Virus record (IMG/VR): IMGVR_UViG_3300035698_034156
Direction: 5' to 3' (one strand)
From: an uncultured virus (IMG/VR IMGVR_UViG_3300035698_034156)
Lineage: Duplodnaviria; Heunggongvirae; Uroviricota; Caudoviricetes
Length of the DNA: 54,485 nucleotides
Shown: in pieces, positions 3,001 through 41,948 of the stretch
How the letters are laid out: each line of letters starts with the position of its first letter
Position numbering within the stretch: the stretch's first letter is position 1
Program-made: the position numbers and the translations under genes
The notes under the pieces: model-generated
What the model was told of the DNA's origin: nothing
Databases searched by the model: none
Seen by the model: the letters and a program-made list of their open reading frames with translations, nothing else

Positions 3001-5217
3001 AACAAATCTGTAAGTTTTACAGTTTTCGACGCAATAGGAATTAGTGACATCAATGTATGGGTTAACAATGCGGTTTCAACAGATTTTATTCAAAGTTCTC
3101 ATTGTTCTGGAACAACAACAATTAACTGTGGATACATTGAATCAGGAATAATCACAGGAGACAATAACATATGGATAGATGCAAATGACAGTTTTGACCA
3201 GAGAAGTGCAAGCACACAAATAGATTTCACAGCTTCTTTAACATCTCCTAACATCAATATAACAAGTCCTAACAATGGATATGTTAGTGGTGAAACACAA
3301 AAAATTATATGGACTGTTTCAGATGACGATGCAGATGACTTAACCGCAGATATTTATATTTCAACATCAGCAGGAAATCAAACATATTTAATAGTTGAAG
3401 ATTTAAATCTTTTAGATACATTAATTTGTTCAGATTATTCAGGAGACACAAGTGTACAGTATTCATGTGAATATGACTGGAACACTTTCGCATACTCAGG
3501 AGGAACTTTAAATGAAGAATCTTACTGGGTAGATATAAATGTGGCGGATATAGGTTCAAATACATCTCTGGATTCCAGCAATAATTATATAACAATAAAT
3601 AATATTCCAAATATAAAAATTGTTAGTCCAATACCGCCAGGTTTTATTAGTCAATATCGAAATTCGTTGGATACAGATACTTCAATAGATTTTAATATTG
3701 TTTCAGGAACATCAACAGAAGATATTAGCATAACTTTATATTATTCTGATTCTCCTAGCGGAACAGATAATACAATGGTAGAAGATTGGAATGTTGTAAA
3801 TACAACGAACTGCCCAACATTTACTGACGCAAACAAAGAATGGCAATGCAGTTACGACTGGGATACAACAAGTGTTCCAGATGGGAATTATTATCTTTCA
3901 ATGACAGCTTCAAATTTTGTGGATAATAATACAATATCACAATTAACATCTTTCTTAGTTGACCAAACATATCCTTTAACAATAAGTGATGCTAATTCAA
4001 CATGGCAGAACACAGATGCAAATGTAATATTGAATTGTAGTGATTCAGGTAGTGGGTGCGATGTAACATCTTATAGAAAAGACACAGATGATAGCACTGC
4101 GATAAGTTGGGGTAGTTGGTTAACATACATAGAAGGAGAAGGAATTCTGTTCGATGTTGACGGAAACTATGGTTTAGATTTTACTTCAAAAGATAACGCT
4201 GAAAATATTAAAACAATTAGCCGAGCATTTGTATTAAAAGATTCAGGTAATCCAATCGTATTAGATACTAGCCCAGATGCAAACACTTCAATGGAAGCTT
4301 CAACTTACACTTTTGAATGTCAAACATACGATGGAAGGTCAGGAGTAAAACGGTGTTATTACGATGTTTACAAAGACAATATTTTAAGTGTGTCAGGAGC
4401 AACAGTTAACCCAGTTGATGGGAATTGCAATTATAATATAACTGAAACAAACGTAAAATATTTTGTTATTTGGACAATCGAAGATAATACAAGTAATTTA
4501 TCAAGCGATTCTCAAAGTTTTGCGATGACATTAACAAGCAGTGCAGTAGTTAATCCCCCAAGCAGTGGTGGCGGAGGTGGTTCTGATGATAATGTTATTG
4601 TAGTTGTAGAAGGAGCAGTTGTCGGAGAACCTTGTGAAATGAATGAGGATTGCGCAGGTGGATTAATTTGCTTAGAAAACGTGTGCTCTAAATCCGAAGT
4701 TATTTCATCCACATTAATAGATATCATTTTTTCAACAAAAGTGATAGAAATGGGAGCTTCATCTCAAAGAACTTTCAGTATGACAATATTAAACAAAACT
4801 GAGGGAATTATCCCACTCGAAATATTTTTAGATGAAAATTTATCGAAATACATAGATTTGAACTATTTTAAGTTCAGTTTACAGCCAAAACAGTACAAAA
4901 ACGTGCTTTTCACGATTGAAACAGATGAAAACTTTTCTGGGATAATAAAGGGTTCGATTGAAACAAACATAAATGAAGGGCAATCATACCAAGTAAGTTA
5001 TATTGCGATAAAACATAGCGAAAACCCACTGGGAGACATTTTATCGTTGGTTTTAATTCCTTTTCCAAATCCTTTACCTGGGATTGGATATGCTTTAACC
5101 ATTGGAACTCTGGTGTTTATTGTGATAGTAGTGGTTGCTTTGTTGTTAATTCGAGGGATTAGAATTAAAAGAAAAAAGATAAAGATTAAGAATAAATACT
5201 TTAGAGGAGTATATTAA
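1..5217 (+). CDS. Giant membrane-anchored surface protein with Ig-like repeats (5' end outside the window)
   Basis: Tandem ~70-100 aa Cys-paired beta modules ending D..AP/P; SSGGGGG linker; Cys-rich module (CEMNEDCAGGLICLENVC); C-terminal TM helix and basic tail. Begins inside an EMAFSC repeat shared with the next ORF. Confidence 0.85.
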   Translation: MAFSCDNASWSGWESYNTSFSNFNFETGAGCSAGDGSKTIYVKYRDNLDTESSSVNDSTYYDTTAPSTSDNHVEGWQTVGFSFTLTPSDGSGSGIASTAFRVDGGDWNANMIVWVVADGNYQVDYNSTDNLGNAEITNTIWASLDSTAPTTTIIDYNADWQSTDQNVILSCSDTTSGCVTTSYRIDSGAWQAFSSSILFTDGNKQLDYNSTDNVENVETTNTTWVAVDKNSPTASDDSDTDWHGNNITITITPTDGSGGSGVNFTKWCQDTAGTCTPSITGVSVVTICADDDINSQYVRYQVTDNVGNTSSIYTSELIKIDREDPTSTDDATTTWFNSNQTIIITPDDASGSGVASTLWCQDTTGNCTPMNIGTSALTICVDGDVNTQYVRYKITDNASNTSGIYTSDKISIDREDPTTTITDYNAGWQPRDQNIILSCSDGTGSACDITKYRIDSGAWIEFSSNILFIDGNKQLDYNSTDTASNIETMNTVWVAVDKNSPTASDDSDTDWHGNNITITITPNGSGGSGIASTVWCQDTSGTCTPTNTGTSAVSICADGDVNSQYVRYQVTDNAGNDSSIYTSKLIKIDREDPTATDNSDISWHSDNVTITITPTDGSGSGADVNLWCQDTAGTCTPVIAGTSVTTVCVDGDVNQQYVRYQITDSIGNDSSIYTSELIKIDREKPTVGTTTLAGGFTESSGYIKGTSTVSATADDGSGSGIDDTTCEYTVDNGVNWLSGTYSGGSCISGNIIISNATIYDFNIRISDNNGNTGVGTKTLTYTGDTQAPTTSDDSDTTTHPPNYNVTISEADNYSSTAQITTYYCKDTVGTCTPTTGINDGEMVLFTSSDRGVNHLRYYSTDVLGTAQTVVDKDININQLPTFTSAVDDAGTIKGGITVTVTTVASDPDWDQTLKLYVCKTNSATSAGCTGAEYCNDTSNKTNPTCNWVSESDDILHNWYAYVYDLNDEAAIGNSKTGSYTNDSTVPTISNVIPVDSSTVYNKSVSFTVFDAIGISDINVWVNNAVSTDFIQSSHCSGTTTINCGYIESGIITGDNNIWIDANDSFDQRSASTQIDFTASLTSPNINITSPNNGYVSGETQKIIWTVSDDDADDLTADIYISTSAGNQTYLIVEDLNLLDTLICSDYSGDTSVQYSCEYDWNTFAYSGGTLNEESYWVDINVADIGSNTSLDSSNNYITINNIPNIKIVSPIPPGFISQYRNSLDTDTSIDFNIVSGTSTEDISITLYYSDSPSGTDNTMVEDWNVVNTTNCPTFTDANKEWQCSYDWDTTSVPDGNYYLSMTASNFVDNNTISQLTSFLVDQTYPLTISDANSTWQNTDANVILNCSDSGSGCDVTSYRKDTDDSTAISWGSWLTYIEGEGILFDVDGNYGLDFTSKDNAENIKTISRAFVLKDSGNPIVLDTSPDANTSMEASTYTFECQTYDGRSGVKRCYYDVYKDNILSVSGATVNPVDGNCNYNITETNVKYFVIWTIEDNTSNLSSDSQSFAMTLTSSAVVNPPSSGGGGGSDDNVIVVVEGAVVGEPCEMNEDCAGGLICLENVCSKSEVISSTLIDIIFSTKVIEMGASSQRTFSMTILNKTEGIIPLEIFLDENLSKYIDLNYFKFSLQPKQYKNVLFTIETDENFSGIIKGSIETNINEGQSYQVSYIAIKHSENPLGDILSLVLIPFPNPLPGIGYALTIGTLVFIVIVVVALLLIRGIRIKRKKIKIKNKYFRGVY

Positions 5218-5297: not shown

Positions 5298-5434
5298 TAT
5301 AGGGTCGGAGTTTATTATAGATAGGTCGGGGTTTATGAAAATAGTTACTGTAAGGATACTAATTCTAATGGCATTTGTTTACGCTAAACCTAAAGCTTTA
5401 GTCGGTGTTTTGTATAAATAAAAGAACTTTGCGT

Positions 5435-5501
5435 TTAAGAGCGTGTGCTGGTTTCTTGCAACCATCCCCAAGATTTTTGTTAGTTCCAGCCACGCTTTTA
5501 A
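5435..5501 (+). promoter_or_regulatory. Strong stem-loop just upstream of the giant adhesin RBS
   Basis: TTAAGAGCGTG(T)GCTGG pairs with CCAGCCACGCTTTTAA; ends 21 nt before the ATG. Confidence 0.55.
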
Positions 5502-5522
5502 TACTTCAAGGAGAAGGATTGA

Positions 5523-18487: not shown

Positions 18488-18571
18488 AAAAACGAATATT
18501 TAACCTAAAAAAGGTTTGTTTTTCTATATTTTTCTATACCCTTTATAAATATAGTGTTTAATAAAAGCCTA

Positions 18572-18633
18572 AGAAAGAAGGGTGAAGGCATTGGGAGCCA
18601 CTTTCTATTCTCATTACTTTCCCCTCCTTTTCT
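18572..18633 (+). ncRNA. Candidate small hairpin RNA
   Basis: Long imperfect purine/pyrimidine hairpin starting 30 nt after the first T of TTTATAAA (18542). Confidence 0.4.
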
Positions 18634-18651
18634 CCCTATTTAAAAAATGAG

Positions 18652-18930
18652 ATGAGATTTTTGAATGTTGTTATTAGAGAAAAAGTTTTAGAACGAATTA
18701 TAAAAAATATTTTAAGTAATAAGGAAAATGTAGACGACGCAAAATGTTATTTTTGTGACTCAAGCAAACTTGGTTCATTTTGTAGTATTCACGATAAAAT
18801 AAATGGTGGGTATGTATGGATAAATTTTTGCTGGAGACATGAACCGAAATTAAGTAATAATATAGCAAACGATTTCTATTCCCAGGTTAAAGCTAAAATT
18901 AGGGAAGAAAAAAATTATGTCTATGAATGA
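18652..18930 (+). CDS. Hypothetical protein with Cys/His (zinc-finger-like) motif
   Basis: ORF with CxxC...CxxH. Confidence 0.5.
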   Translation: MRFLNVVIREKVLERIIKNILSNKENVDDAKCYFCDSSKLGSFCSIHDKINGGYVWINFCWRHEPKLSNNIANDFYSQVKAKIREEKNYVYE

Positions 18931-19105
18931 ACAAGCGTGGTGCATAAAACATGGGTATGACCAAACATCAGAACAGCATAAACGCCATAAAAAAGAAAGA
19001 GTGCATCTTGTCATAAAACGGAAAAAAAGAATTAATAAAAAGCAAGGTAAATTTGAAAAAAGTAAGAAAGGAAACAAAGATGTAGAATGGTATCGGTGTT
19101 GTTAA
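18917..19105 (+). CDS. Small basic hypothetical protein
   Basis: ORF coupled to the previous gene. Confidence 0.45.
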   Translation: MSMNEQAWCIKHGYDQTSEQHKRHKKERVHLVIKRKKRINKKQGKFEKSKKGNKDVEWYRCC

Positions 19106-19178
19106 TTTATAATAAGATAGGTATATAATTAATGTAATTAGAAACATTTAAAATACTATATTGAATTTGATGATAAAA

Positions 19179-19862
19179 TTATAATCCATAGTTTCTTTTT
19201 CTATGATTATATTCATCTATTGCTCGAGCTAAATCTTCTTTTTCAAAATTAGCCCATTGCTTCGTTGTAAAATACATTTCTGAATAAGAAGATTGATATG
19301 TTAAAAAACCGCTTAAACGTGTTTCACCAGAAGTTCTAATAATCAAATCAGGTATAACAGGAATTTGAAGATATTTAATAAAAGATTTCGTGTTCAAATC
19401 ATGTCTTTCATTAATTTTATAATGAAAAGCATATTTTTTTATAGCTCTAATAATTTCATCCTGTCCATCATATGCTAAAGCAATGTAAATAGTTTTTTTG
19501 TCATTATGAAGAGTAGATTTTTCTGCTTTTTTAATTAGTTTTTGAATTGATTTACTTAACATTTTTAAGTTACCAACAAACTTTAGTTTAATTCCTTTTT
19601 CTTTTAAATTATTGATTGGTATAGTTTTTAGTTCTCTTTCAAATAATTTCATTAAAACATTGATTTCTTTTTTATCTCGTTTTATGTTTTCCAATGAAAG
19701 AGCATAGAAAACACCGTTTTTAATAAGAGGGTATTGTAAAAGCCAGTCAATAACATCCCACGCTTTTTTGATACCTAAAAGATATGAACTAGAAAATGGT
19801 ATTTTTTCCTTTAAGGCAAATCTTCTGTTTCCATCTGGAACAAAAGCGATAGTTGTAATCAT
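19179..19862 (-). CDS. uppS: cis-prenyltransferase (polyprenyl diphosphate synthase)
   Basis: PDGNRR, YALSLENIKR, PDLIIRTSGETRLSGFL and C-terminal RNYG motifs. Confidence 0.95.
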   Translation of the reverse strand: MITTIAFVPDGNRRFALKEKIPFSSSYLLGIKKAWDVIDWLLQYPLIKNGVFYALSLENIKRDKKEINVLMKLFERELKTIPINNLKEKGIKLKFVGNLKMLSKSIQKLIKKAEKSTLHNDKKTIYIALAYDGQDEIIRAIKKYAFHYKINERHDLNTKSFIKYLQIPVIPDLIIRTSGETRLSGFLTYQSSYSEMYFTTKQWANFEKEDLARAIDEYNHRKRNYGL

Positions 19863-19897
19863 TCAATAATATTAATGCTAATGATATTAATAAAGAG

Positions 19898-19968
19898 TGC
19901 GCAATCAGGGAATCGAACCCTGCCCTAAAGCTTGGAAGGCTTTTGTGCAACCATTACACTAATTACGC
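19898..19968 (-). tRNA. tRNA-Gly(TCC)
   Basis: Cloverleaf: acceptor GCGTAAT/ATTGCGC; AAAGC-CT-TCC-AA-GCTTT; TTCGATT. Confidence 0.92.
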
Positions 19969-19970
19969 TA

Positions 19971-20045
19971 TAACGATGGTTGGATTTGAACCAACGACCT
20001 CTGGGTTATGAGCCCAGCGGGCACTCCTGACTGCCCTACACCGTT
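19971..20045 (-). tRNA. Initiator tRNA-Met(CAT), archaeal type
   Basis: A1-U72; three G-C pairs in the anticodon stem (CTGGG-CT-CAT-AA-CCCAG). Confidence 0.92.
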
Positions 20046-20053
20046 ATGTATAG

Positions 20054-20226
20054 ATTTATAGGACATATTTAAAAAGGTTTAGTAGTGTAATATTATAGAT
20101 ATGGGAAGGAATTTGTTATCCACCTTTTCTTTGTAAGTGTTAGGTCATATCACTCCACCTTTCCATATCACTTTAAATTTATAAGACATATTTAAAAAGA
20201 GTTAGTAGTGTAATATTATAGGTATG
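20054..20226. repeat. Two 50-bp direct repeats (20054-20103 and 20177-20226, 46/50 identical) containing a bidirectional TATA core
   Basis: ATTTATARGACATATTTAAAAAG..TTAGTAGTGTAATATTATAGRTATG. Confidence 0.85.
20098..20169 (+). ncRNA. Candidate small RNA closed by a 12-bp stem
   Basis: GATATGGGAAGG/CCTTTCCATATC; the G-U pair favours the + strand; starts 30 nt after TTTAAAAA (20068). Confidence 0.5.
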
Positions 20227-20295
20227 AAAAAGAAATAATTAGAAAGGGTTTAAGTCATCCATCTTGTTCCTCTCCTATGTGTTTCTTTTTGTATC
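20221..20295 (+). ncRNA. Candidate small hairpin RNA
   Basis: GGTATGAAAAAGAAATA/TGTTTCTTTTTGTATC stem; starts 30 nt after TTTAAAAA (20191). Confidence 0.5.
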
Positions 20296-20323
20296 ATTTA
20301 AAAAAACAGGAGAAAACGATATA

Positions 20324-20719
20324 ATGTTTGATAAAAAAGAAATGGAAACTATTTATTATACTATAAGAAACCGAATTTTTGAACTAGAAGACCCGTGCGA
20401 TAATTGTATCGCATATGACTGTGCTAAAAATCCAATACAGGAAATATTACTAAAAAAATGTAGATTGGATGTAATTGATGAAAAATATTGTCTTAAAGAA
20501 AAAAAGAAAGAATTAAAATCACTAATGGAACTTTACAAAAATAAGTCATTTAATAAATTTAAAAAAGCTAAGTGCGATATTTGCGGTAAAATGAAAATTT
20601 ACCCAGAAGAATTCAGGAAAAAACTTTATACTCAAAGAGGAGATGGAGATTATTTTGTAGTTAAAAGAGTTTGCAAACAATGCAAACCACCATCGAAGGC
20701 AAAAAAGGTGAAGAAATGA
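20324..20719 (+). CDS. Cys-rich hypothetical protein
   Basis: Several CxxC motifs; start moved to the ATG at 20324. Confidence 0.6.
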   Translation: MFDKKEMETIYYTIRNRIFELEDPCDNCIAYDCAKNPIQEILLKKCRLDVIDEKYCLKEKKKELKSLMELYKNKSFNKFKKAKCDICGKMKIYPEEFRKKLYTQRGDGDYFVVKRVCKQCKPPSKAKKVKK

Positions 20720-21060
20720 GTGAAAATGAAATCAAAAATAGAATTAGGAAACATTTAGTTCCTTTATATGATGCATTAAATTCGTGTTGTAGATTTGACA
20801 AAGAACTTGAAAAAGAATTTGGAATCACTTATGATTGGAGAATATGTAAAACTTGTGGTTCACACACATTTTATATTAGACAATCTAATTTACCATCTGG
20901 AACACTAGATATTGATAATGAAGTAGTTGATATTGAATTTATTTGTGCAGAATGCGGAGAACATACAGGTGGCAGAATTTTAGAAGATAGTTTTCAAGAA
21001 AAACTTGATGAATTTGATAATCTTCAATCAAAAACAGTAAAGAAAAAGGTGAAAAAATGA
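20716..21060 (+). CDS. Zinc-ribbon hypothetical protein
   Basis: CKTCG...CAECG; AGGTGA RBS. Confidence 0.65.
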   Translation: MSENEIKNRIRKHLVPLYDALNSCCRFDKELEKEFGITYDWRICKTCGSHTFYIRQSNLPSGTLDIDNEVVDIEFICAECGEHTGGRILEDSFQEKLDEFDNLQSKTVKKKVKK

Positions 21061-21512
21061 ATATAGCTGAAGCTTTAAGTGAATTAAAAATAACTAGAAC
21101 AAGAATTGCAAGAGCCATAGAATCCAGAGAAAAAACAATCAAATACAAAGGAAAAAAACCAAACAAAACATACGAACAATTAACTAAAGATATCAAAGAT
21201 TATGCAAAGAAAGCAACATCATTGAAATTGAAAATATTAAAAGCTAATGTTAATACTATAGTAGGAAAGAAAGTTCTTCAAGAAATTATTTTAGAACAAG
21301 CAGATATTAGAAGCGAAATAGCTTCATTGAAGGGTATTCTTGGAAAAGGAAAGAAAAGATACCATGAAGATATCTTTTCAGAATCTTATGATAAAGAAAA
21401 ATTCCAAGTTAATAGATTTGATGTTGAAGAAGATATCAAAAAACTTGAATCAGAAAAAAGGAAAATTGATTCTGTTATTCAATCAACGAACTGGAAAACA
21501 AAATTAATATAA
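21057..21512 (+). CDS. DIP1984-like coiled-coil protein
   Basis: MNIAEAL...LKLKILKAN...IDSVIQSTNWKTKL matches my recollection of the family's MKLAEAL...IQxxNWxTEL pattern. Confidence 0.75.
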   Translation: MNIAEALSELKITRTRIARAIESREKTIKYKGKKPNKTYEQLTKDIKDYAKKATSLKLKILKANVNTIVGKKVLQEIILEQADIRSEIASLKGILGKGKKRYHEDIFSESYDKEKFQVNRFDVEEDIKKLESEKRKIDSVIQSTNWKTKLI

Positions 21513-21516
21513 TTAA

Positions 21517-21599
21517 AGAGATGAGACGGAAGAACATAGTATAATGGAGAGGCGTCCGTCCAGTTGTAGCTATGTACATAATCTGGATTTCTCATCTCT
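21517..21599 (+). ncRNA. Candidate three-way-junction RNA with a kissing loop
   Basis: P1 AGAGATGAGA/TCTCATCTCT; P2 CGGA/TCCG; P3 TCCAG/CTGGA; loops ACATAG and CTATGT are complementary. Confidence 0.55.
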
Positions 21600-21619
21600 A
21601 ATAATTTAAGGTGAATAAA

Positions 21620-22321
21620 ATGAGTAAAAAAACAAAAAAAATAAGTAAATTTATTGGATTGGATACATGTCGTACAGATTTTTTAAAAAAAGAATATCAA
21701 CCTAATGATAGTGTTTCAATGATATATGTAAGGAAAAATATCAAAGAAAAACGTCTTGAAGTAGAAGTATTACCTTTAGGAATGGGAACGAACAGAATAT
21801 TTAAATCAATTCCACCATTATCTAAAAAAGAAAAATTAGCACGAGATAAAAAAATAGAAAAAATAAGCAAAAAATCAGTTGATACATCTAAATGGGTTAA
21901 ACTTGATGATGAATCAATACAAAACGCATTATTAACAAATCTTGTGATGTGTGTATTATTAAAGGAAGAAAAGCGTGTTGGACTAGTAGATTCATTTAAA
22001 TTCATAGAAGTAAACGCAAAAGCTCATGTATTGTATAGCATATTACATTCTAAACACCCAAGTAATCCGCAGTCACTTACAAATTATATGGTTAAACCGT
22101 ATATAGAAACTATACTTAGAGAATTAGGAAATAAAAAAGAAGTTAAATATCTTTGGGATGTTTGTCTTAGTTTAAAAACAAAAATGACTGCAACTAAAAG
22201 AAGAAAAATGATAAATGATTGGAAAAAAAATAATATTAAAAAAATGATTAAAATTACACGGCAACGGCAAATTAAAAAATCTAAAACCAGAAGCAGAAAG
22301 AAGGGAGTAGGTCGAAAATGA
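21620..22321 (+). CDS. Basic hypothetical protein
   Basis: Long ORF with AGGTGA RBS. Confidence 0.6.
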   Translation: MSKKTKKISKFIGLDTCRTDFLKKEYQPNDSVSMIYVRKNIKEKRLEVEVLPLGMGTNRIFKSIPPLSKKEKLARDKKIEKISKKSVDTSKWVKLDDESIQNALLTNLVMCVLLKEEKRVGLVDSFKFIEVNAKAHVLYSILHSKHPSNPQSLTNYMVKPYIETILRELGNKKEVKYLWDVCLSLKTKMTATKRRKMINDWKKNNIKKMIKITRQRQIKKSKTRSRKKGVGRK

Positions 22322-22668
22322 GTGGAATTGAGCAAACTATAATTTCCAGATTTAGTAAATTTATTCCCTCCTGCTCATTCTGGTATTGGACTAAATTAAA
22401 TTTTAGACTGGATTGGTGGGATTTTAAGATGAATTTAAAGAAAAAGATTTTTTGTGATAATGGATTTCACAAAATTTTGACCAGCAAACAAAGCGTATCT
22501 TCTCTTGGAGGAAAACATGATTATCACTACGAAACAGAATTTTTAAAGTGTGCAAATTGTGAAATGATGTTTTTTTCAACTAAAAAAGATAAAGATATTT
22601 ACTTAAAAATGAACAGCGCTAAAAGAAACAGTTTTTCTGAAGCAATGGAATTAATGAAAAAGAAATGA
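22318..22668 (+). CDS. Hypothetical protein
   Basis: ORF coupled to the previous gene; C/H motifs. Confidence 0.55.
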   Translation: MSGIEQTIISRFSKFIPSCSFWYWTKLNFRLDWWDFKMNLKKKIFCDNGFHKILTSKQSVSSLGGKHDYHYETEFLKCANCEMMFFSTKKDKDIYLKMNSAKRNSFSEAMELMKKK

Positions 22669-23107: not shown

Positions 23108-23176
23108 AATAGGAGCCAAAGCGAAAGCTTTCTCCGTATATTTGGTTGGCTCATAGGAGGAGCCAATCCTCCTATT
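23108..23176 (+). ncRNA. Branched structured element (ncRNA or terminator)
   Basis: AATAGGAG/CTCCTATT closing stem; AAAGC-GAAA-GCTTT GNRA hairpin; TTGGCTC/GAGCCAA hairpin. Confidence 0.4.
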
Positions 23177-23321
23177 TTTAAAAAAAGCTTTACACGGCTA
23201 AAAGATTAATAATTACACATATAAAAGATAGAATAATTATCCAGTTAGGTGAATTATATTTTATATTATATAATCCGCATCCTAAGCAAATAATTGCTAA
23301 TCCTATTGAAAATAAGTTCAT

Positions 23322-24151: not shown

Positions 24152-25271
24152 TCACCCTTTAACAACCGCAATAGGTGTTAATTTTGTTACAATTTCAACC
24201 AAATCTTTTTGATTTTTCATAACATTTTCTATATCTTTATATGCTCCTGGGGCTTCATCTAAATCTTTTATATCACGAATAGAGTGCATAATACCTTGTT
24301 TATCTAACAATTTTTGTTGTTCTTTTAACTTTAAAGTTCTTTGAGCAACTTTTCTACCCATTCTCCTACCAGCTCCGTGAGAACAAGAATTAAAACTCAA
24401 ATAATGTCCTTTGCCTTTGACAATATAACTTGCAGTTCCCTGACTTCCTGGGATAATTCCAAGCTCTCCTTCTTTAGCAGAAGTTGCACCCTTTCTATGA
24501 ACCATTACCTCTTTACCAAAATGCTTTTCCATAACAGCATAATTGTGGTGAACATCTAACATATTTTCTTCACATGTTTTAAATCCCATATCATTTATTT
24601 TACATTGTATAATTTTCATCATTCTTTTTCTGTTTGCTTTAGCGAACTCCAAGCAATAATTCATTTCTCTCAAATAAGCTTTCGCTTCTTCGCTATCTAA
24701 TGGTAAAAAAGCCAAGTCCCAATCCTTTGGAACTGATGAATGATATTTTTGATTTAGTTCTTTGGCTAAATCGTTATAGTGTTTTGCTACCTTGTAGCCA
24801 ATGTTTCTACTACCTGAATGAATCATAATCCAAACAAAATCATTTTCGTCTTTTTGAATTTCAATAAAGTGGTTTCCTCCACCAAGTGTTCCAATTTGAT
24901 GTGTAGCACTATCAAATTGCTGACTAACAATTGGAAAATCATCTTGAAAACATGTTTCTTTAACTTTAATAATAGGCATATCTAATTCATTTGCTTTCTT
25001 GTTATGACTAAATCCAACAGGAATATGTTCTCTGATGTGTTTCATTAACTCAACTAACTTTTCTTTAGTCAAATCTTCTACAGCCATATAAGTTTGCATT
25101 GCTCTCATACCGCAACCGATATCAACCCCAACCGCATTTGGTACTACAACATCTCTTGTCGCCATCACTCCATTCACATTGTTTAACCATATTTTCACTT
25201 GAATAATATTCATCTTCGTTCATCCAAATTTTTATTGGTATTAACCCGTTTTTTGGTTTATATTCAAACAT
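24152..25271 (-). pseudogene. rtcB: RtcB RNA ligase with an internal deletion and frameshift near the N-terminus
   Basis: VGVDIGCG, GGGNHFIE, HSGSR, HNY, HRKGA and SHGAGR are present. The true start (AGGAGG RBS, MFEYKPKNGLIPIKIW...KQCE) is out of frame with the body, and the MPDxHxGxGxPIG segment is missing. Confidence 0.85.
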
Positions 25272-25348
25272 TTTATTCCTCCTAAACCTATCATTTTCAC
25301 ATCTTTTGTTATCGTTATATAATAATATTATATAGAAATGTTTATAAA

Positions 25349-28991: not shown

Positions 28992-29005
28992 GAAATGTTT
29001 ATAAA
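28992..29005 (-). promoter_or_regulatory. TATA promoter TTTATAAACATTTC(TA); identical copy near 25333-25348
   Basis: The same 16-bp sequence precedes two minus-strand gene blocks. Confidence 0.55.
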
Positions 29006-30678: not shown

Positions 30679-31110
30679 ATGAGTAGTAAAATAAGTGATG
30701 AACTGCGTTTGCATGTAATGGAATATTTTAATTCAAATAATAACATCAAGAAAAGCAGTATAATGAATGAATTTAAAAAGAAAAAAATCAAGTTTTCAAA
30801 ACGAACTCTTGGGAATGTTTTAAAGAAACTTTGCGATGACAAGATTTTATCAAACGATAATCATGTTTATTCAAAGAAGAAAAAAACTAAAATGAATCTA
30901 GGCGAGTTTATGGAGAACGAAGGAATTGAAACGGATATGAGGAAAAAACCGACAACTCCAACTAAAATGAAAATTTTCAAATCGAATTCAATTAGCTCAA
31001 TAACTACACAACTTCGGTCTCAGGAACAAATGTTAATCGAAGTTTGCACGAGACTTTCAAAATTAGAAGATATTTCTCGAAATAATTTAAGGAAGGTGAA
31101 GAAAAAATGA
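30679..31110 (+). CDS. Winged-helix DNA-binding protein
   Basis: FSKRTLGNVLKKLCDDKIL...VY helix-plus-wing pattern. Confidence 0.6.
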   Translation: MSSKISDELRLHVMEYFNSNNNIKKSSIMNEFKKKKIKFSKRTLGNVLKKLCDDKILSNDNHVYSKKKKTKMNLGEFMENEGIETDMRKKPTTPTKMKIFKSNSISSITTQLRSQEQMLIEVCTRLSKLEDISRNNLRKVKKK

Positions 31111-31544
31111 TGAAGTTTGTGTCATTAATTGCGATTTTTTGTTTGTTGCTTGTTTCAGTTCAAGCAACAACTCAATTAGCTGGAAGGTATGATGTTACTG
31201 CAAATACTCAGTTTCGTTGTAGGTTGAATGGTGGTGAGTGGTGGATTCAAAGGTATTTTCCGCATAATCAGCATTGGAGTGGGGTTGAGAGATGTTTTTA
31301 TGGTTGTGATTATGCAACTAAGAAGTGTTATTCTTCAACTGCGAGAGTTTACAGAAAACAAATGAATTCAATTAATAGTTTTATTTACAAGTTAAGGTTT
31401 AAACCAAGTTGGAGTCATACAAATTTATTATCAACTCCGAGAATTCAAACACATACATTAAATAAAACACAAAGGATTTATTTTGGAAATAATGCAGTTA
31501 AATCATATTACAGGAGAACTAATTTAAGGAAGGTGAAAAAATGA
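31107..31544 (+). CDS. Secreted Cys-containing protein (paralog of 41553..41948)
   Basis: Signal peptide; GRYDVTANTQFRCR...CFYGCDYATKKCYS. Confidence 0.75.
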   Translation: MMKFVSLIAIFCLLLVSVQATTQLAGRYDVTANTQFRCRLNGGEWWIQRYFPHNQHWSGVERCFYGCDYATKKCYSSTARVYRKQMNSINSFIYKLRFKPSWSHTNLLSTPRIQTHTLNKTQRIYFGNNAVKSYYRRTNLRKVKK

Positions 31545-35213: not shown

Positions 35214-35287
35214 GTTGAGTGTAGTGTAATGGTTTAGCATAGAGGGCTGTGAATCCTCAGGAGGGCATTCGATTTGCCCCATTCAAC
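35214..35287 (+). tRNA. tRNA-His(GTG) with encoded G-1
   Basis: G-1 pairs with C73; GAGGG-CT-GTG-AA-TCCTC; atypical A53-U61. Confidence 0.88.
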
Positions 35288-35553
35288 CTATAAAAATAAA
35301 ATAAATAAAGGTGTTATTTTGATAAATGTAAAAAGGCATAAAAGAAAATTATCTCTTAAAAAATTTCACATTAAAATATGTTCATCTATTAATAATAAAA
35401 TATTTAAAGATGAATTTTATATAATGGCAAGAAGCAAAATTCGTGCAAAAGAAAAAGTTTCAAACGATTTAAAAAATAAAGGTTTTAAAATTGTAAAATT
35501 AAATAAATTATTAAATAGATGATGGCTCCCTGTTCAACCTTTAAAAATAAAAA

Positions 35554-35579
35554 TTTCCCACCAAAAAATAAGTGGGAAA
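35554..35579. terminator. Hairpin between convergent genes
   Basis: TTTCCCAC/GTGGGAAA inverted repeat. Confidence 0.45.
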
Positions 35580-35586
35580 GTAAAAT

Positions 35587-35898
35587 TTATTTGACTGATT
35601 CAATCACATTTTTAACCTTGTTAACCTTCTTGATATAATATTCAATGATTTCAGATACATTATCTAAATCTAAAGGAATTTTAACACTCAAAAAAGCTAA
35701 ACTATCCAAATTAAAAGAAGCAGTAATTACTCCATCTTTAAATTCATAGTTTTCAAGTGTTGTTGGAATATTTTCCCATAAAAAACTAGGACAATCCTTA
35801 TGGTCATCTTCTCCATATTCTTCAATATTATCCAATAAAGCATTCTTTTTTTTCTTATCGAATTCTTCTTTATTTAAACTAAAATAAGCTGTTTCCAT
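35587..35898 (-). CDS. Hypothetical protein
   Basis: ORF with RBS. Confidence 0.6.
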   Translation of the reverse strand: METAYFSLNKEEFDKKKKNALLDNIEEYGEDDHKDCPSFLWENIPTTLENYEFKDGVITASFNLDSLAFLSVKIPLDLDNVSEIIEYYIKKVNKVKNVIESVK

Positions 35899-36145
35899 TC
35901 AAAATCACTTTCCTGCCAACACAAAGCCCAGCACCGCCGAGTAAAGCCGATAAACATTGATTAAAGGACAAAGCTTTTAATATCTCCTATGTATATTTAA
36001 TATATAAATTTAAAATAAATTGAAATAGGTGGTCATATGACAAAAAACATAACTCCAAATGAAAACTTCGGATTTTATTTCGCGCCATCGGAGCAACCGC
36101 AGTCACCCATATTATTGGAACTGACGGAATCCAACACGCGAAATC

Positions 36146-36218
36146 GGAGAGATAGTTTAACTTGGTATGACCTCAGCTTTGGAAGCTGATAATGAGGGTT
36201 CAAATCCTTCTCTTTCCA
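36146..36218 (+). tRNA. tRNA-Pro(TGG)
   Basis: TCAGC-TT-TGG-AA-GCTGA; cloverleaf. Confidence 0.85.
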
Positions 36219-36222
36219 CTAT

Positions 36223-36294
36223 GGGCTGGTATTTCAACGGTAGAATAATTCCTTTGCAAGGAATAGGCTGGGGGTTCGAATCCCTCTCGGTCCA
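36223..36294 (+). tRNA. tRNA-Ala(TGC)
   Basis: G3-U70; ATTCC-TT-TGC-AA-GGAAT. Confidence 0.9.
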
Positions 36295-36297
36295 CTA

Positions 36298-36549
36298 ATG
36301 GAAATAAAAGTTTGGATAAGTAAAGCTAAAAGCAAAGGATACTATATTCATTATGATTCAAACGGTGAATTAGATAATTTGGTCAAAGGTAGTTATAAGT
36401 CAATGGATGCGTTAACTAAAAGAGAAAGAACAGAAGGACATCATAAAAAGAAACCGTGTATTTGCGGAACACATTCAATTAGTGGACATAAAGAAAAATG
36501 GAAGTACCCAAAATGGAAAAAGAAAAGCAGAAAAGCCCCAATAATGTAG
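36298..36549 (+). CDS. Hypothetical protein within the tRNA array
   Basis: ORF fills the gap; its stop lies inside tRNA-Glu. Confidence 0.55.
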   Translation: MEIKVWISKAKSKGYYIHYDSNGELDNLVKGSYKSMDALTKRERTEGHHKKKPCICGTHSISGHKEKWKYPKWKKKSRKAPIM

Positions 36550-36609
36550 CTAGGTCAAGCATCTCTGGCTTTCAACCAGAAAACGTGAGTTCAAATCTCG
36601 CTTGGGGTA
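36535..36609 (+). tRNA. tRNA-Glu(TTC)
   Basis: TCTGG-CT-TTC-AA-CCAGA. Confidence 0.9.
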
Positions 36610-36612
36610 CTA

Positions 36613-36685
36613 GCCTCGATAGTGTAGTGGACAAACACACTGGGTTCTCAAACCAGAGACCTGAGTTCAAATCTCAGTTGAGGCA
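36613..36685 (+). tRNA. tRNA-Glu(CTC)
   Basis: CTGGG-TT-CTC-AA-ACCAG (31-39 mismatch). Confidence 0.82.
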
Positions 36686-36687
36686 TC

Positions 36688-36762
36688 CTTCCTTTGGTGT
36701 AACGGCAACAAGCACAGAAGGCTGTAGACTTTCAGGAGCGAGTTCGATTCTCGTAAGGAAGA
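36688..36762 (+). tRNA. tRNA-Tyr(GTA), archaeal type
   Basis: C1-G72, A73, short variable loop. Confidence 0.9.
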
Positions 36763-36768
36763 TAATAT

Positions 36769-36912
36769 GCAGAAGTAGCGAAGTGGCGAACGCACCAGAC
36801 CTAAGATGGAGAGGACAAATCTTCTTATCTGTCCAAAGGGTGAAACTCAAAACTTTCGTGGGAAATCTGGTTGAGCAAGGCTCTCGCGCAGGTTCGAATC
36901 CTGCCTTCTGTA
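36769..36912 (+). tRNA. tRNA-Leu(TAA) with a 59-nt 37/38 intron (36806-36864)
   Basis: Long variable arm; BHB with CCTA/TGGG helix and AG|A, AA|A bulges; C33. Confidence 0.85.
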
Positions 36913-36917
36913 TTTTT

Positions 36918-36988
36918 AGGGAAGTGGCAGAACGGTTATGCACTGGGTTGCAACCCCAGTTAAGCGAGTTCATCTCTCGCCTTCCCTT
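36918..36988 (+). tRNA. tRNA-Cys(GCA)
   Basis: CTGGG-TT-GCA-AC-CCCAG; U73; atypical T-loop TTCATCT. Confidence 0.82.
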
Positions 36989-36990
36989 TC

Positions 36991-37112
36991 GCTGGTGTGG
37001 CTCAATGGTAGAGCGGTTCCCTTGTAAGAAAATGGGCGGAGATTTGCTTCCTCTAGCCGTTTTCTTTGATAGGAACGGGTTGGGAGTTCGATTCTCTATC
37101 TCTCCGAGGGTA
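36991..37112 (+). pseudogene. tRNA-Thr(TGT) with an intron-like insert, fused to the 3' end of a different tRNA
   Basis: 5' GCTGGTG has no CACCAGC partner; after the T-loop comes ATCTCTC-CGAGGGT-A, a foreign T-stem/acceptor end. Confidence 0.7.
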
Positions 37113-37114
37113 TC

Positions 37115-37188
37115 ATCCTCGTAGTGTAGTGGACAAGCACCCAAGTTTCTGAAACTTGGAACGGTGAGTTCGAATCTCCCTGAGGATA
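37115..37188 (+). tRNA. tRNA-Gln(CTG)
   Basis: A1-U72; CAAGT-TT-CTG-AA-ACTTG. Confidence 0.87.
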
Positions 37189-37201
37189 TTTAAATTAAGA
37201 G

Positions 37202-37450
37202 GTGAAAAAATTGAAAAAAATAATGGAATACAAAGGAAAAGAATACGAAGTGTTATTCAGGCACGATAGAACGAAAGACGGAGACAAAATTGCTTCAAAA
37301 GGAGGAAAAACGACAGCATACATTAGAAATGATAAAAGAGAGGACATCATAAGCGAAATATCAGTATGCTCAATGAAAGATAATTACTCCAAAAGAATTG
37401 GAAGATTAATTTCAGAAGGCAGATTAAGGAAGTTGGTATTAAATGCATGA
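37202..37450 (+). CDS. Phage-type hypothetical protein
   Basis: KGGKTTA...SVCSMKDNYSKRIGRLIS.GR motif; start uncertain. Confidence 0.65.
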   Translation: MKKLKKIMEYKGKEYEVLFRHDRTKDGDKIASKGGKTTAYIRNDKREDIISEISVCSMKDNYSKRIGRLISEGRLRKLVLNA

Positions 37451-37751
37451 AAGTGAAATAGGTAAACTGAAAAACTATTGCCATAGATATATCGAAACGA
37501 TATTGAATTGTTTAGATGAAGGATTTTCATTGGAAGAAATAGTGGAATTAGGAAAATTAAGAGGAATAACACATTATTCAATAGAGAGTTTGCTGTATTT
37601 AAAAAAAGGTGAATTAAATGATATATTTCATAATCTTGACAAAGAAATTGGTTTTCCATTAAAATTTAGTGGTGATGATAAGAAATGTCTAATAAAGGAA
37701 TATGGTGTAAAGTTATTTATTAGATTGAAGCCATGGTGGCAGAGCGGTTAA
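37443..37751 (+). CDS. Hypothetical protein
   Basis: Coupled ORF; its stop lies inside tRNA-Ser(GCT). Confidence 0.55.
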   Translation: MHESEIGKLKNYCHRYIETILNCLDEGFSLEEIVELGKLRGITHYSIESLLYLKKGELNDIFHNLDKEIGFPLKFSGDDKKCLIKEYGVKLFIRLKPWWQSG

Positions 37752-37813
37752 TCGCGCTGGGTTGCTAACTCAGTGGGGGAAACTCTAAGCAGGTTCGAAT
37801 CCTGTCCATGGCG
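37730..37813 (+). tRNA. tRNA-Ser(GCT)
   Basis: Long variable arm; G73. Confidence 0.9.
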
Positions 37814-37815
37814 TT

Positions 37816-37917
37816 GGCACAGTGGCAGAGCTTGGTTTAATGCACTCCGCTTGAGTTAGTATTCTGCAAGAAACGGTGAGTCCCTCGGGACCGTAGGTTC
37901 GAATCCTGCCTGTGTCG
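37816..37917 (+). tRNA. tRNA-Ser(TGA) with a 17-nt 37/38 intron (37856-37872)
   Basis: Clean BHB: CTTG/CAAG helix with two 3-nt bulges; long variable arm; G73. Confidence 0.9.
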
Positions 37918-37928
37918 TTGGTGATGTA

Positions 37929-38102
37929 ATGAATGAATGGAAAGATATAGATGAAAATGAAAAATTAAACAAAAAAAAGTTGGTAAAAGCATTAGTAAAA
38001 ACTCGGAATGATTTGTATGGTTATGGAATTAATGAAATGGGAAATTTTACAAATGCTTGGTTAATAAAAATTCTTGACGGGAAATTTGATGCAGAGGTCT
38101 GA
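37929..38102 (+). CDS. 57-aa hypothetical protein
   Basis: GGTGA RBS; MNEWKDIDENEK...; TGA lies inside tRNA-Asp. Confidence 0.5.
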   Translation: MNEWKDIDENEKLNKKKLVKALVKTRNDLYGYGINEMGNFTNAWLIKILDGKFDAEV

Positions 38103-38166
38103 TAGTCTAATGGTAGGATGGAAGGTTGTCAACTTTTCGGTGGGGGTTCGATTCCCCTTCAGACCG
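38096..38166 (+). tRNA. tRNA-Asp(GTC)
   Basis: Acceptor GGTCTGA/TCAGACC; G73; GTC anticodon. Confidence 0.87.
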
Positions 38167-38170
38167 TTAG

Positions 38171-38243
38171 GGGACTATAGTTTAATCGGATAGAGCATTC
38201 GCCTTCGAAGCGTGTAATTCGGGTTCGAGTCCTGATAGTTCCT
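38171..38243 (+). tRNA. tRNA-Arg(TCG)
   Basis: TTCGC-CT-TCG-AA-GCGTG; cloverleaf. Confidence 0.82.
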
Positions 38244-38245
38244 TT

Positions 38246-38317
38246 GGGATTGTGGCGCAATGGTAGCGTTTCCCGCTTATATCGGGAAGGTTGCAGGTTC
38301 GATTCCTGTCAGTCCCA
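38246..38317 (+). tRNA. tRNA-Ile(TAT) by anticodon; body nearly identical to tRNA-Val(TAC)
   Basis: TCCCG-CT-TAT-AT-CGGGA. Confidence 0.82.
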
Positions 38318-38387
38318 TTAAAAAGATGGTTTTAATATTATTAATAAAAAGAAGAAATTGGAGAAATTATAAGGTGTTTTAAAAAAT

Positions 38388-38522
38388 ATGGAAAAAAAGA
38401 AAGATAGTAAATATTATTTTAGTTCTGTTCCGACATATAGAAGTTTACCTCGAAATAGAATTACTTTAATTGACAGAAAAAAATTAGAAAAAATGTTTAA
38501 TGTTAGTATCAAGGACCTGTAG
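38388..38522 (+). CDS. 44-aa hypothetical protein
   Basis: MEKKKDSKYYFSS...; TAG lies inside tRNA-Lys. Confidence 0.4.
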   Translation: MEKKKDSKYYFSSVPTYRSLPRNRITLIDRKKLEKMFNVSIKDL

Positions 38523-38588
38523 CTCAGTTTGGTTTAGAGCAACGGACTCTTAATCCGTGTGCCGTGAGTTCAAATCTCATCAGGTTCG
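38513..38588 (+). tRNA. tRNA-Lys(CTT)
   Basis: ACGGA-CT-CTT-AA-TCCGT. Confidence 0.92.
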
Positions 38589-38591
38589 TTT

Positions 38592-38663
38592 GGGATTGTG
38601 GCTCAATGGTAGAGCTTTCCGTTTACATCGGAAGGGTTGCAGGTTCAATTCCTGTCAGTCCCA
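38592..38663 (+). tRNA. tRNA-Val(TAC)
   Basis: TTCCG-TT-TAC-AT-CGGAA. Confidence 0.9.
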
Positions 38664-38666
38664 TTT

Positions 38667-38741
38667 GGAGCTATAGCTCAGTTTGGATAGAGCATCGGAC
38701 TTCTAATCCGAGTGTCGCGGGTTCAAATCCTGTTAGCTTCG
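38667..38741 (+). tRNA. tRNA-Arg(TCT)
   Basis: TCGGA-CT-TCT-AA-TCCGA. Confidence 0.92.
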
Positions 38742-38745
38742 CTTT

Positions 38746-38821
38746 GGAAATGTAGCATAGTATGGTTTAGTGCACTCGGCTGTTAACCGAAAGACCGTAG
38801 GTTCGAATCCTACCGTTTCCG
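38746..38821 (+). tRNA. tRNA-Asn(GTT)
   Basis: CTCGG-CT-GTT-AA-CCGAA; G73. Confidence 0.9.
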
Positions 38822-38824
38822 TTT

Positions 38825-38900
38825 GGGATAATAGCATCAGTCTGGTTAATGTGCGCGGCTCCAAACCGTGAAATCGGCGGTTCGAATCCGTCTTATCCCA
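38825..38900 (+). tRNA. tRNA-Trp(CCA)
   Basis: CGCGG-CT-CCA-AA-CCGTG. Confidence 0.9.
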
Positions 38901-38903
38901 TTT

Positions 38904-38974
38904 GGAGATGTGGTGTAATGGACGCACACCTTGCTGAAGACGAGGAGGTTTAAGTTCAATTCTTGGCATCTCCA
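38904..38974 (+). tRNA. tRNA-Phe(GAA)
   Basis: CCTTG-CT-GAA-GA-CGAGG. Confidence 0.85.
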
Positions 38975-38985
38975 CTTTTGATTTT

Positions 38986-39877: not shown

Positions 39878-40111
39878 ATGAACACGGAAAGAATTTGTGA
39901 AGGTTGTGAAAAAAACAAAAGTGAGATGCTTGTAAATATGCCTCTTTCACAAGGTTTATTTACTGCGAATCTTTGTATGAACTGTGGATTTATTATTCAT
40001 GAAAGTTCAGAATTATTTATAAAAATTATAAATAAAAGAGCGAAAGAAAGAAATATTTTATTACCTTGTTCAAATGAGGATTTTAAAATTTTGTTAGTTG
40101 GTTTAAAATGA
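39878..40111 (+). CDS. Zinc-finger hypothetical protein
   Basis: CEGC...CMNC. Confidence 0.6.
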   Translation: MNTERICEGCEKNKSEMLVNMPLSQGLFTANLCMNCGFIIHESSELFIKIINKRAKERNILLPCSNEDFKILLVGLK

Positions 40112-41237: not shown

Positions 41238-41556
41238 ATTTTCACACAAAAATTATCGAAAGTTTTATTTAAAAGATGCGAAAATTGAAAATAATGATAT
41301 GGTTAATTTGGTAGGTGTTTCTGTTTGTAATATTGATGATTTGCCAGAGGATTTTAAATATTTTGATGCGAATTATGGAACAGAAGATGAACCAGAGTAT
41401 TATCCTTTACCAAAAGGTAAAGTAATAGTATTATTTTTTTGGTATGATGATTTATTTCCAACTATTCGAAGATGGACTCCAAAAAAAGAAGAATATTATA
41501 AAGAATCTATAGGAAAAGAATTTTTGATTAATATTAAGGAAGGTGGATTGAAGTGA
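41218..41556 (+). CDS. Hypothetical protein
   Basis: IKFSH...FPTIRRWTPKKEEYY; GGAGTG RBS. Confidence 0.6.
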   Translation: MKLLQIKFSHKNYRKFYLKDAKIENNDMVNLVGVSVCNIDDLPEDFKYFDANYGTEDEPEYYPLPKGKVIVLFFWYDDLFPTIRRWTPKKEEYYKESIGKEFLINIKEGGLK

Positions 41557-41948
41557 AGTTTTTTTTGTTGGTTGTGATTTTTTGTTTGTTTGTTATTTCT
41601 GTTCAAGCAAGCGGTTTAACTGGAAGATACGATGTTACGGCGAATACACAATTTCGTTGTAGGTTTGTTGGTGGAGATTGGTGGATTCAGAGGTATTTTC
41701 CACATAATAAATACTGGAGTGGTGTGGAAAAATGTTTTTATGGTTGTGATTATGCGACTAAAAAGTGTTATTCTCCGAGTATAAGAACTTACAGAAAACA
41801 AGTGGATTCAGTTAATACATTTATCTACAATTTGAGATTTACTCCTAATTGGAGTCCAACTCCGAGAGTTTACACTCCAAGAGTTCAATACACTCCAAGA
41901 GTTCAATACACTCCATCAAATACTGTCAGGATTTATTATCGTAATTAA
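41553..41948 (+). CDS. Secreted Cys-containing protein (paralog of 31107..31544) with TPRV(Q)Y repeats
   Basis: Signal peptide; near-identical core; 15-18-bp tandem repeats at ~41859-41915. Confidence 0.75.
   Translation: MKFFLLVVIFCLFVISVQASGLTGRYDVTANTQFRCRFVGGDWWIQRYFPHNKYWSGVEKCFYGCDYATKKCYSPSIRTYRKQVDSVNTFIYNLRFTPNWSPTPRVYTPRVQYTPRVQYTPSNTVRIYYRN

Follow-up and report, generated by a model that had tools for sequence, protein, structure and literature searches.

Small RNAs which cover ribosome-binding sites (RBS) have been described in bacteria and archaea. In Alphaproteobacteria, the alpha-r14 or cuckoo sRNAs, such as NfeR1, carry repeated, redundant anti-Shine-Dalgarno (anti-SD) modules and block ribosome-binding sites as a class. 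These RNAs contain three hairpins with CCUCCUCCC in open loops (PMC10746234). The archaeal sRNA162 of Methanosarcina mazei masks an RBS in trans and is reported to act both in cis and in trans (PMC3510493). As for viruses, the C4 antisense RNA of phages P1 and P7 is an RNA of about 77 nt which is cut from a longer transcript and acts on the virus's own mRNAs (PMC5320573). The archaeal virus SSV1 produces short non-coding transcripts from its own promoters (bioRxiv 10.64898/2026.06.17.732947). In the open-access literature, no description was found of a DPANN-archaeal virus which encodes small RNAs that mask an RBS in trans.

The window analyzed here is the whole 54,485-nt contig of an uncultured virus (IMG/VR record IMGVR_UViG_3300035698_034156). 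An earlier note had described in it a family of three stand-alone hairpin RNAs (here H1, H2 and H3, Table 1), each starting 30 nt from a TATA box, and had proposed that they are antisense sRNAs aimed at translation starts, or decoys or antitoxins. To judge by their sequence, these rods lack the defining features of the cuckoo/alpha-r14 RNAs and of C4 RNA, and the resemblance would be one of mode. Like the cuckoo RNAs with their repeated modules, H2 carries two identical anti-SD modules. Unlike them, there is one rod per RNA, the module is a different one and lies mostly in stems or bulges, CCUCCUCCC is absent, the anti-SD 5-mers of H1-H3 are mostly paired, the element is archaeal, and Rfam gives no match. 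In contrast to the rods, sRNA162 is chromosomal, uses an unstructured linker and has a tested target, and shares no sequence link with them (PMC3510493). Being cut from a longer transcript, as C4 RNA is, would fit the leader-plus-sRNA position of H3. However, C4 consists of three stem-loops and is made by RNase P, whereas each unit here is a single rod starting at a predicted transcription start (PMC5320573), and the longest exact complement of the rods elsewhere in the window, which is part of the element, is 11 nt. The SSV1 transcripts are mostly cis-antisense to ORFs, while the units described here are intergenic, duplicated and structured (bioRxiv 10.64898/2026.06.17.732947). What the rods would share with trans-acting RBS-masking sRNAs is a predicted promoter of their own, indicated by the TATA box at 30 nt, the promoter matrix score and a match to a host promoter.

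Database searches placed the rods in no described family. The Rfam search proposed in the earlier note (Rfam 15, gathering threshold) found nothing but tRNAs in the window. When E values up to 10 were allowed, weak miRNA-type matches covered H1 and H2, far below threshold. Archaeal guide RNAs carry C and D boxes (C/D) or an ACA tail with a K-turn (H/ACA). By eye, no such boxes were seen in H1-H3, whose tails are ATT or ACT, and no Rfam guide family matched. The exact promoter-repeat patterns had 0 matches in viral and metagenome contigs. DNA searches of 215 host-phylum genomes with H2-H3, H1 and a fourth unit, with 2-4 candidates scored per genome, yielded only short AT-rich or start-like matches. 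BLAST against phages matched only tRNAs among the best 20 of 482 records. Searching 1.14 Mb of two host genomes for hairpins with open anti-SD loops gave no counterpart of the units.

The element and its probable host

The window encodes very large, repeat-rich surface-type proteins and many short ORFs without family. Recognized genes include those for RtcB, an RNA ligase, Thg1, YopX, an HD protein, an integrase and glycosylation. The proteins scanned in the window included no recognizable capsid or terminase, so the term virus-like element is used presumptively. The closest relatives of uppS and those of a 289-aa surface protein (one IMG/VR record and 14 of the 215 host-phylum genomes) point to an Iainarchaeota lineage as the probable host. 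The best uppS identity across the 215 Iainarchaeota-phylum genomes is at most 56%; the contig is probably tied to Iainarchaeota, and its precise host lineage would lie outside the genomes searched. The host 16S tail ends in GGATCACCTCC, so SD-led initiation is available.

A related virus record (G005) has the surface-protein family and one small ORF in common with the element. It showed 0 rods at 125 candidate starts and no TGTCYTATA box, but it is a fragment, estimated at 36% complete. Protein-led locus searches with uppS, RtcB and DUF6847 found no close relative of the element, and the RNA-ligase and DUF6847 relatives in the host phylum are sited on unrelated contigs.

The window holds 23 tRNA matches (20 ARAGORN calls). 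About 21 tRNA genes form an array at 35215-38975, including a tRNA-Ile with a TAT anticodon. The matches at 36769, 36991 and 37816 were made only by Rfam; all three, of which two exceed the usual length, may be interrupted by introns or inserts. The genes for RtcB, RNA ligase and Thg1 lie near this array. The RtcB frame (24152-25271) seems split near its start, where the 353-codon frame and a 49-codon ORF (25271, preceded by a good SD) overlap; a frameshift and a sequence error are candidate causes. Two paralogous small genes (31107-31544 and 41553-41948) have signal-peptide-like starts and are 81% identical over 241 nt; the latter contains a short internal tandem repeat near 41860-41920.

Table 1. 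Coordinates of the rods, promoters, boxes and neighboring genes
Feature	Position	Strand	Remarks
H1 TATA box	18542..18549	+	palindrome-like; 4.2 bits on + (top 0.7%), 6.5 on minus
H1 rod hairpin	18572..18637	+	weak fold; SD-like GGTGA in 5' arm pairs with 3' anti-SD arm
Putative 19-codon TTG-start uORF inside H1	18591..18650	+	GGTGA 5 nt upstream; stop one base before ATG 18652
Two small ORFs (92 and 62 aa)	18652..19105	+	no known family; starts 18652, 18917
uppS (cis-prenyltransferase)	19179..19862	-	closest: Iainarchaeota/Diapherotrites proteins, 50-56% identity
tRNA-Met (CAT, initiator-like) and tRNA-Gly (TCC)	19897..20046	-	head to tail
Promoter copy 1	20051..20097	both	two-way TATA 20068-20075; 30 nt to H2 (+), 30 nt to tRNA-Met (-)
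Operator-like box TGTCYTATA(A), copy 1	20056..20066	-	in promoter copy 1
H2 rod hairpin	20098..20169	+	72 nt; 12-bp closing stem joins 5' and 3' ends
Promoter copy 2	20174..20220	both	TATA 20191-20198; + start 20221, minus start ~20169
Operator-like box TGTCYTATA(A), copy 2	20179..20189	-	in promoter copy 2
H3 rod hairpin	20221..20295	+	75 nt; H2 paralogue; open apical loop UCAUCCAU
Five-ORF run downstream of H3	20324..22668	+	includes DUF6847 (21057); three starts carry AAGGTG
Fourth TATA-plus-rod unit	23113..23198	-	between convergent gene runs; apical loop CUCCUAU fully open
TGTCYTATA(A) boxes	20057, 20180	-	pattern matches
TGTCYTATA(A) boxes	30200, 30280, 38985, 39016, 39828, 39860, 40279, 52759	+	pattern matches
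TGTCYTATA near-match	40246	+	
TGTCYTATA near-match	52011	-	

TATA boxes and rods

The 30-nt spacing given in the earlier note is exact. TTTATAAA at 18542 and TTTAAAAA at 20068 and 20191 lead, 30 nt on, to 18572, 20098 and 20221, where each rod has its first or second base. The non-coding positions of the window were scanned for a TATA box followed 28-32 nt on by a single rod of -17.5 kcal/mol or lower. Four loci were obtained, namely H1, H2, H3 and one extra unit on the minus strand starting at 23198. Forty windows with shuffled intergenic DNA gave a mean of 0.175 and a maximum of 2, with thresholds chosen after the hairpins were seen and a shuffling which breaks local word content. In host data, 2 rods were found at 3342 candidate starts (G031) and 0 at 572 (G020 contig 1). 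The TATA-hairpin arrangement exceeds chance; it is real but confined to a single locus. The fourth unit folds equally well on both strands (z -3.6 on minus, z -3.5 on plus). The open loop on its minus strand is the clearest anti-SD display in the window, and no homologue was found by DNA search in the 215 host-phylum genomes.

Compared to dinucleotide shuffles, H2 and H3 fold significantly (z -2.9 with 1 of 200 shuffles as good, and z -4.3 with 0 of 200). The fold of H1 is not significant (z -1.2, 26 of 200 shuffles as good; z -1.3 in a repeat estimate). In all three, the plus strand folds better than the minus strand.

The tandem of H2 and H3 was borne out as a duplication through promoter and stems. 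The promoter-repeat identity, previously counted as 46/50, is 45/50 ungapped on recount, or 43/47 up to the hairpin start. The repeat extends into the hairpins (68 nt, 84%), so the closing stems are shared and only the interiors differ; the different bodies attributed to H2 and H3 are different interiors. The stems differ at 8 of 24 positions. H3 nonetheless keeps 11 of 12 pairs on the plus strand and would keep 8 of 12 on the minus strand, its substitutions giving G-U pairs on the former and mismatches on the latter. Random substitution keeps as many pairs in 0.3%, 1.6% and 6% of cases at transition rates of 0.33, 0.6 and 0.8. Since homologues were not found, this covariation rests on two paralogues. 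Judging from these patterns, H2 and H3 are tandem paralogues which appear to be selected for plus-strand structure, and they are probably real plus-strand structured RNA elements of some kind. Their interiors are no more alike than shuffles (653/5000), so no seed is conserved between them. Two further features common to H2 and H3, the core GTYATCCAYCTT and a Met-Thr-stop on the minus strand, were attributed to chance, the second by estimate only.

H1 could not be linked to this pair. Aligned to H2 or H3, it scores no better than shuffles, and it resembles them in composition only; the idea of a three-member family is not supported. No loop motif shared among the three was found. The description of the 5' arm as purine-rich applies to its initial 14 nt (13, 12 and 12 of 14 in H1, H2 and H3), but the 5' half of H2 has a purine fraction of 0.44. 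The pyrimidine-rich 3' arm is a consequence of pairing with purines in the 5' arm and may simply form a terminator, which counts against an sRNA function; in one host genome, a 19-nt match to the H1 arm is located directly behind a stop codon.

Other rods occur in the window. The strongest intergenic one (5431-5505, z -6.4) lies just before the SD of a 2950-aa gene, with no TATA box at 30 nt. A long hairpin (21512-21606, z -3.6) directly follows the DUF6847 gene. Behind a host DUF6847 gene in L144 lies non-coding sequence with short repeats (about 4680-4530, minus), and an RNA element linked to this gene is possible. A 70-nt rod (36076-36145, z -4.3) abuts the tRNA-Pro heading the tRNA array, inside a 50-codon ORF.

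Stand-alone RNAs or leaders

The reading preferred here, put forward tentatively, is that H2 and H3 are generic SD-masking small RNAs, i.e., free or processed RNAs of 70-75 nt which damp translation. A second reading is possible though rather unlikely, namely that the rods are cis-acting 5' leaders for mRNA 5'-end stabilization or transcription attenuation of the ORFs behind them. Their anti-SD look would then simply reflect pairing with a 5' arm which is rich in purines and resembles a start.

The description as stand-alone RNAs fits H2 best, because promoter copy 2 lies directly 3' of it. For H1 and H3 it is questionable, since plus-strand ORFs begin 14 and 28 nt after their ends. ORF 18652 has no SD and no promoter at leaderless spacing (score -5.3), so H1 is probably its leader and that of ORF 18917. 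Here, H1 might hide the SD of a uORF coupled to 18652. The hydrophobic look of the uORF peptide is weak evidence, as a pyrimidine arm by itself would produce it. H1 seems to be a looser unit, unrelated to the other two, and is more likely a cis leader. H3 in turn probably leads into the 20324-22668 gene run, whose first ORF carries an AGGAG SD and would need upstream transcription unless the gene is leaderless. H2 would be a duplicated leader which gives this run a second upstream promoter.

Further points fit leaders. An ATG at +4 in H2 and H3 opens frames of 11 and 4 codons, comparable to the leaderless starts 39878 and 40296, and the strong rods at 5431, 21512 and 36076 adjoin an SD or a tRNA without a TATA box at 30 nt. 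On the other hand, a candidate promoter at 20297 (4.4 bits) could serve ORF 20324 directly, and H3 neither pairs with nor switches the SD of this ORF in the fold of 20221-20345. No ORF lies behind H2, yet a perfect stem and a repeated anti-SD module are kept there.

Two-way promoter and operator-like box

The earlier note missed the other face of the repeat. A gap of 22 nt separates the TATA box of copy 1 from the start of H2 and also from base 1 of tRNA-Met. The promoter repeat thus reads as two-way, its minus face predicted to serve tRNA-iMet, tRNA-Gly and uppS as well. A minus-strand start from copy 2 would give an RNA antisense to H2. A weak promoter matrix, trained on 82 host tRNA upstream regions and taken as the best of 7 offsets, gave the plus faces of copies 1 and 2 scores of 8.4 and 7.4 bits (top 0.01-0.03% of window positions) and the minus faces 5.8 and 4.3 bits (within the top 0.7%). 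The plus face of copy 2 also matches the promoter of the HU gene (PF00216) at 20 of 20 nt, in the same orientation, in three related host genomes. The best E of 7e-5 applies to one genome among 215, and the match is suggestive only, since 215 AT-rich genomes were searched.

The repeat includes a box, TGTCYTATA, which has 10 copies in the window compared to 1.4 expected (0 of 100 shuffles). Box pairs 31-33 nt apart flank the TATA before Thg1 and before the leaderless starts 39878 and 40296, so that three promoters share the layout of box, TATA, box and start. From its position, TGTCYTATA(A) is a candidate element-specific operator. Inside the repeat, the box is directed the minus-strand way, which counts against the plus-strand sRNA reading. 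Near-identical minus-strand promoters with TTTATAAA-CATTTCTA (25341-25348 and 28998-29005) head minus-strand gene runs and share their layout with the minus face of the repeat. A search of viral contigs for the double-box pattern gave 4 loci, all judged chance.

It is improbable, nevertheless, that the minus strand is the only functional face, with copy 1 as the tRNA-iMet/Gly/uppS promoter, copy 2 as a second promoter upstream of it, and the plus-strand reading as an accident of a palindromic TATA. The transcript of copy 2 from 20169 would then contain the opposite strand of H2, along with an SD and tiny ORFs. By eye, a TATA-like tract lies about 30 nt upstream in several of 31 host tRNA-Met loci, as it does here, and one of these loci has a near-identical AAACCTTTTTA tract. 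The box and the TATA-CA/TA-box layout agree with the minus-strand promoters at 25348 and 29005, and H2 forms a TATA+29 rod on the minus strand too (-16.1 kcal/mol). However, the better plus-strand folds of all three rods and the G-U pairs of H3 speak for the plus strand. In addition, the end of H3 has no minus-strand promoter (2.0 bits), and the plus face, which resembles a host promoter, outscores the minus face.

Complementarity to translation starts

The CAT and anti-SD-like strings quoted for the hairpins are present. Pairing was scored over 59 element starts, i.e., 70 called by script, less 19 shadow or internal starts dropped by judgement, plus 8 added by hand. For three flagged segments, which had been chosen for their anti-SD look, the mean duplex energy beats that of dinucleotide shuffles (5, 4 and 1 of 150 as good). 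The H2 5' module showed no such effect over the 59 starts (51 of 150). The best single target was within chance for three of four segments (111, 79 and 64 of 150 shuffles). That of the H3 loop, start 33281, was equaled by 4 of 150 shuffles, and its significance is lost after correction for four tests.

Two non-host genomes were also used; their uppS identity is at most 56%, and neither is the host. Two of ten segment-by-genome tests, H2 and H3 arms in the first 300 genes of G031, beat all 12 shuffles. The remaining eight did not exceed all 12, which are few. No specific target survived correction among the 59 element starts and these two genomes.

The display of anti-SD sequence differs between the units. 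Compared to dinucleotide shuffles, anti-SD 5-mers are not clearly in excess in H1 (P 0.33), H3 (P 0.23) and H2 (P 0.07), and they exceed shuffles in the fourth unit (P 0.013). The flagged H1 and H2 motifs are buried, with opening costs of 10.4 and 10.6 kcal/mol, compared to 3.6 kcal/mol for the H3 loop and 3.9 kcal/mol for the first H2 module. H2 carries TCCACCTTT twice (20119 and 20154), and any exact 9-mer repeat appears in 145 of 20000 shuffles. TCCACCTTT is the mirror of AAAGGTG, the element's commonest SD context, and AAGGTG stands at 14 of 59 element starts compared to 14 of 337 starts in one set of host data and 48 of 694 in another. Together, the mean pairing above shuffles, the repeated H2 module and the AAGGTG frequency speak for an action on SD-led messages as a class, primarily those of the element itself, rather than on a single aimed target. 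Of the original antisense idea, predicted plus-strand RNAs from archaeal promoters, tandem expansion and generic complementarity to starts stand; specific aimed targets are not supported.

Guides against one or few specific host mRNAs, with new bodies added behind a reusable promoter as targets change, seem as improbable as the minus-strand reading. They would account for unrelated interiors behind the same promoter and stems, and the G031 result fits them. Moreover, the 3' arm of H1 exactly mirrors an 18-nt gene start in one host genome. Against such guides, H1-arm matches of this kind are at the level expected over 215 genomes, and eight of the ten segment-by-genome tests did not exceed all shuffles in genomes which are not the host.

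It is very improbable that the RNAs are protein decoys or antitoxins, or that the palindromes act as DNA: abundant RNA-repair genes (RtcB, RNA ligase, Thg1) make RNA-level conflict with the host likely, but the rods have no common loop motif, the adjacent ORFs have no recognizable toxin or RNA-binding family, and the G-U-compatible changes favor RNA over DNA.

Proposed function and outlook

As generic SD-masking small RNAs, H2 and H3 would be transcribed on the plus strand from the duplicated two-way archaeal promoter, the other face of which would drive tRNA-iMet, tRNA-Gly and uppS. The element-specific operator box may switch both faces together with Thg1 and the other boxed promoters. The closing stem, by joining the 5' and 3' ends, would protect the released RNAs from exonucleases. 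In H2, the two UCCACCUUU modules (mirror of AAAGGUG) may serve as seeds, and in H3 the open UCAUCCAU loop; both would pair in trans with SD/AUG regions as a class. The predicted effect is damped translation of SD-led mRNAs, most plausibly from the element's own AAGGTG-led genes.

A wider version of this reading is unlikely. A DPANN-virus cassette, expandable and made of a two-way promoter, a protective end-joining stem and a replaceable interior, would produce anti-SD RNAs co-regulated with the initiator tRNA and would re-allot ribosomes between SD-led and leaderless messages during infection. Messages from the boxed promoters at 39878 and 40296 would escape anti-SD RNAs, their starts being leaderless.

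If H2 and H3 act in trans, they are a variant on the known RBS-masking mode. If the rods are only leaders, the locus adds no more than a modest detail to promoter anatomy. Whichever reading holds, the operator-like boxes offer a testable lead. The proposed action of the rods, if real, would mean that an element with a minimal host controls translation without protein regulators and ties this control to its own initiator tRNA through one two-way promoter.
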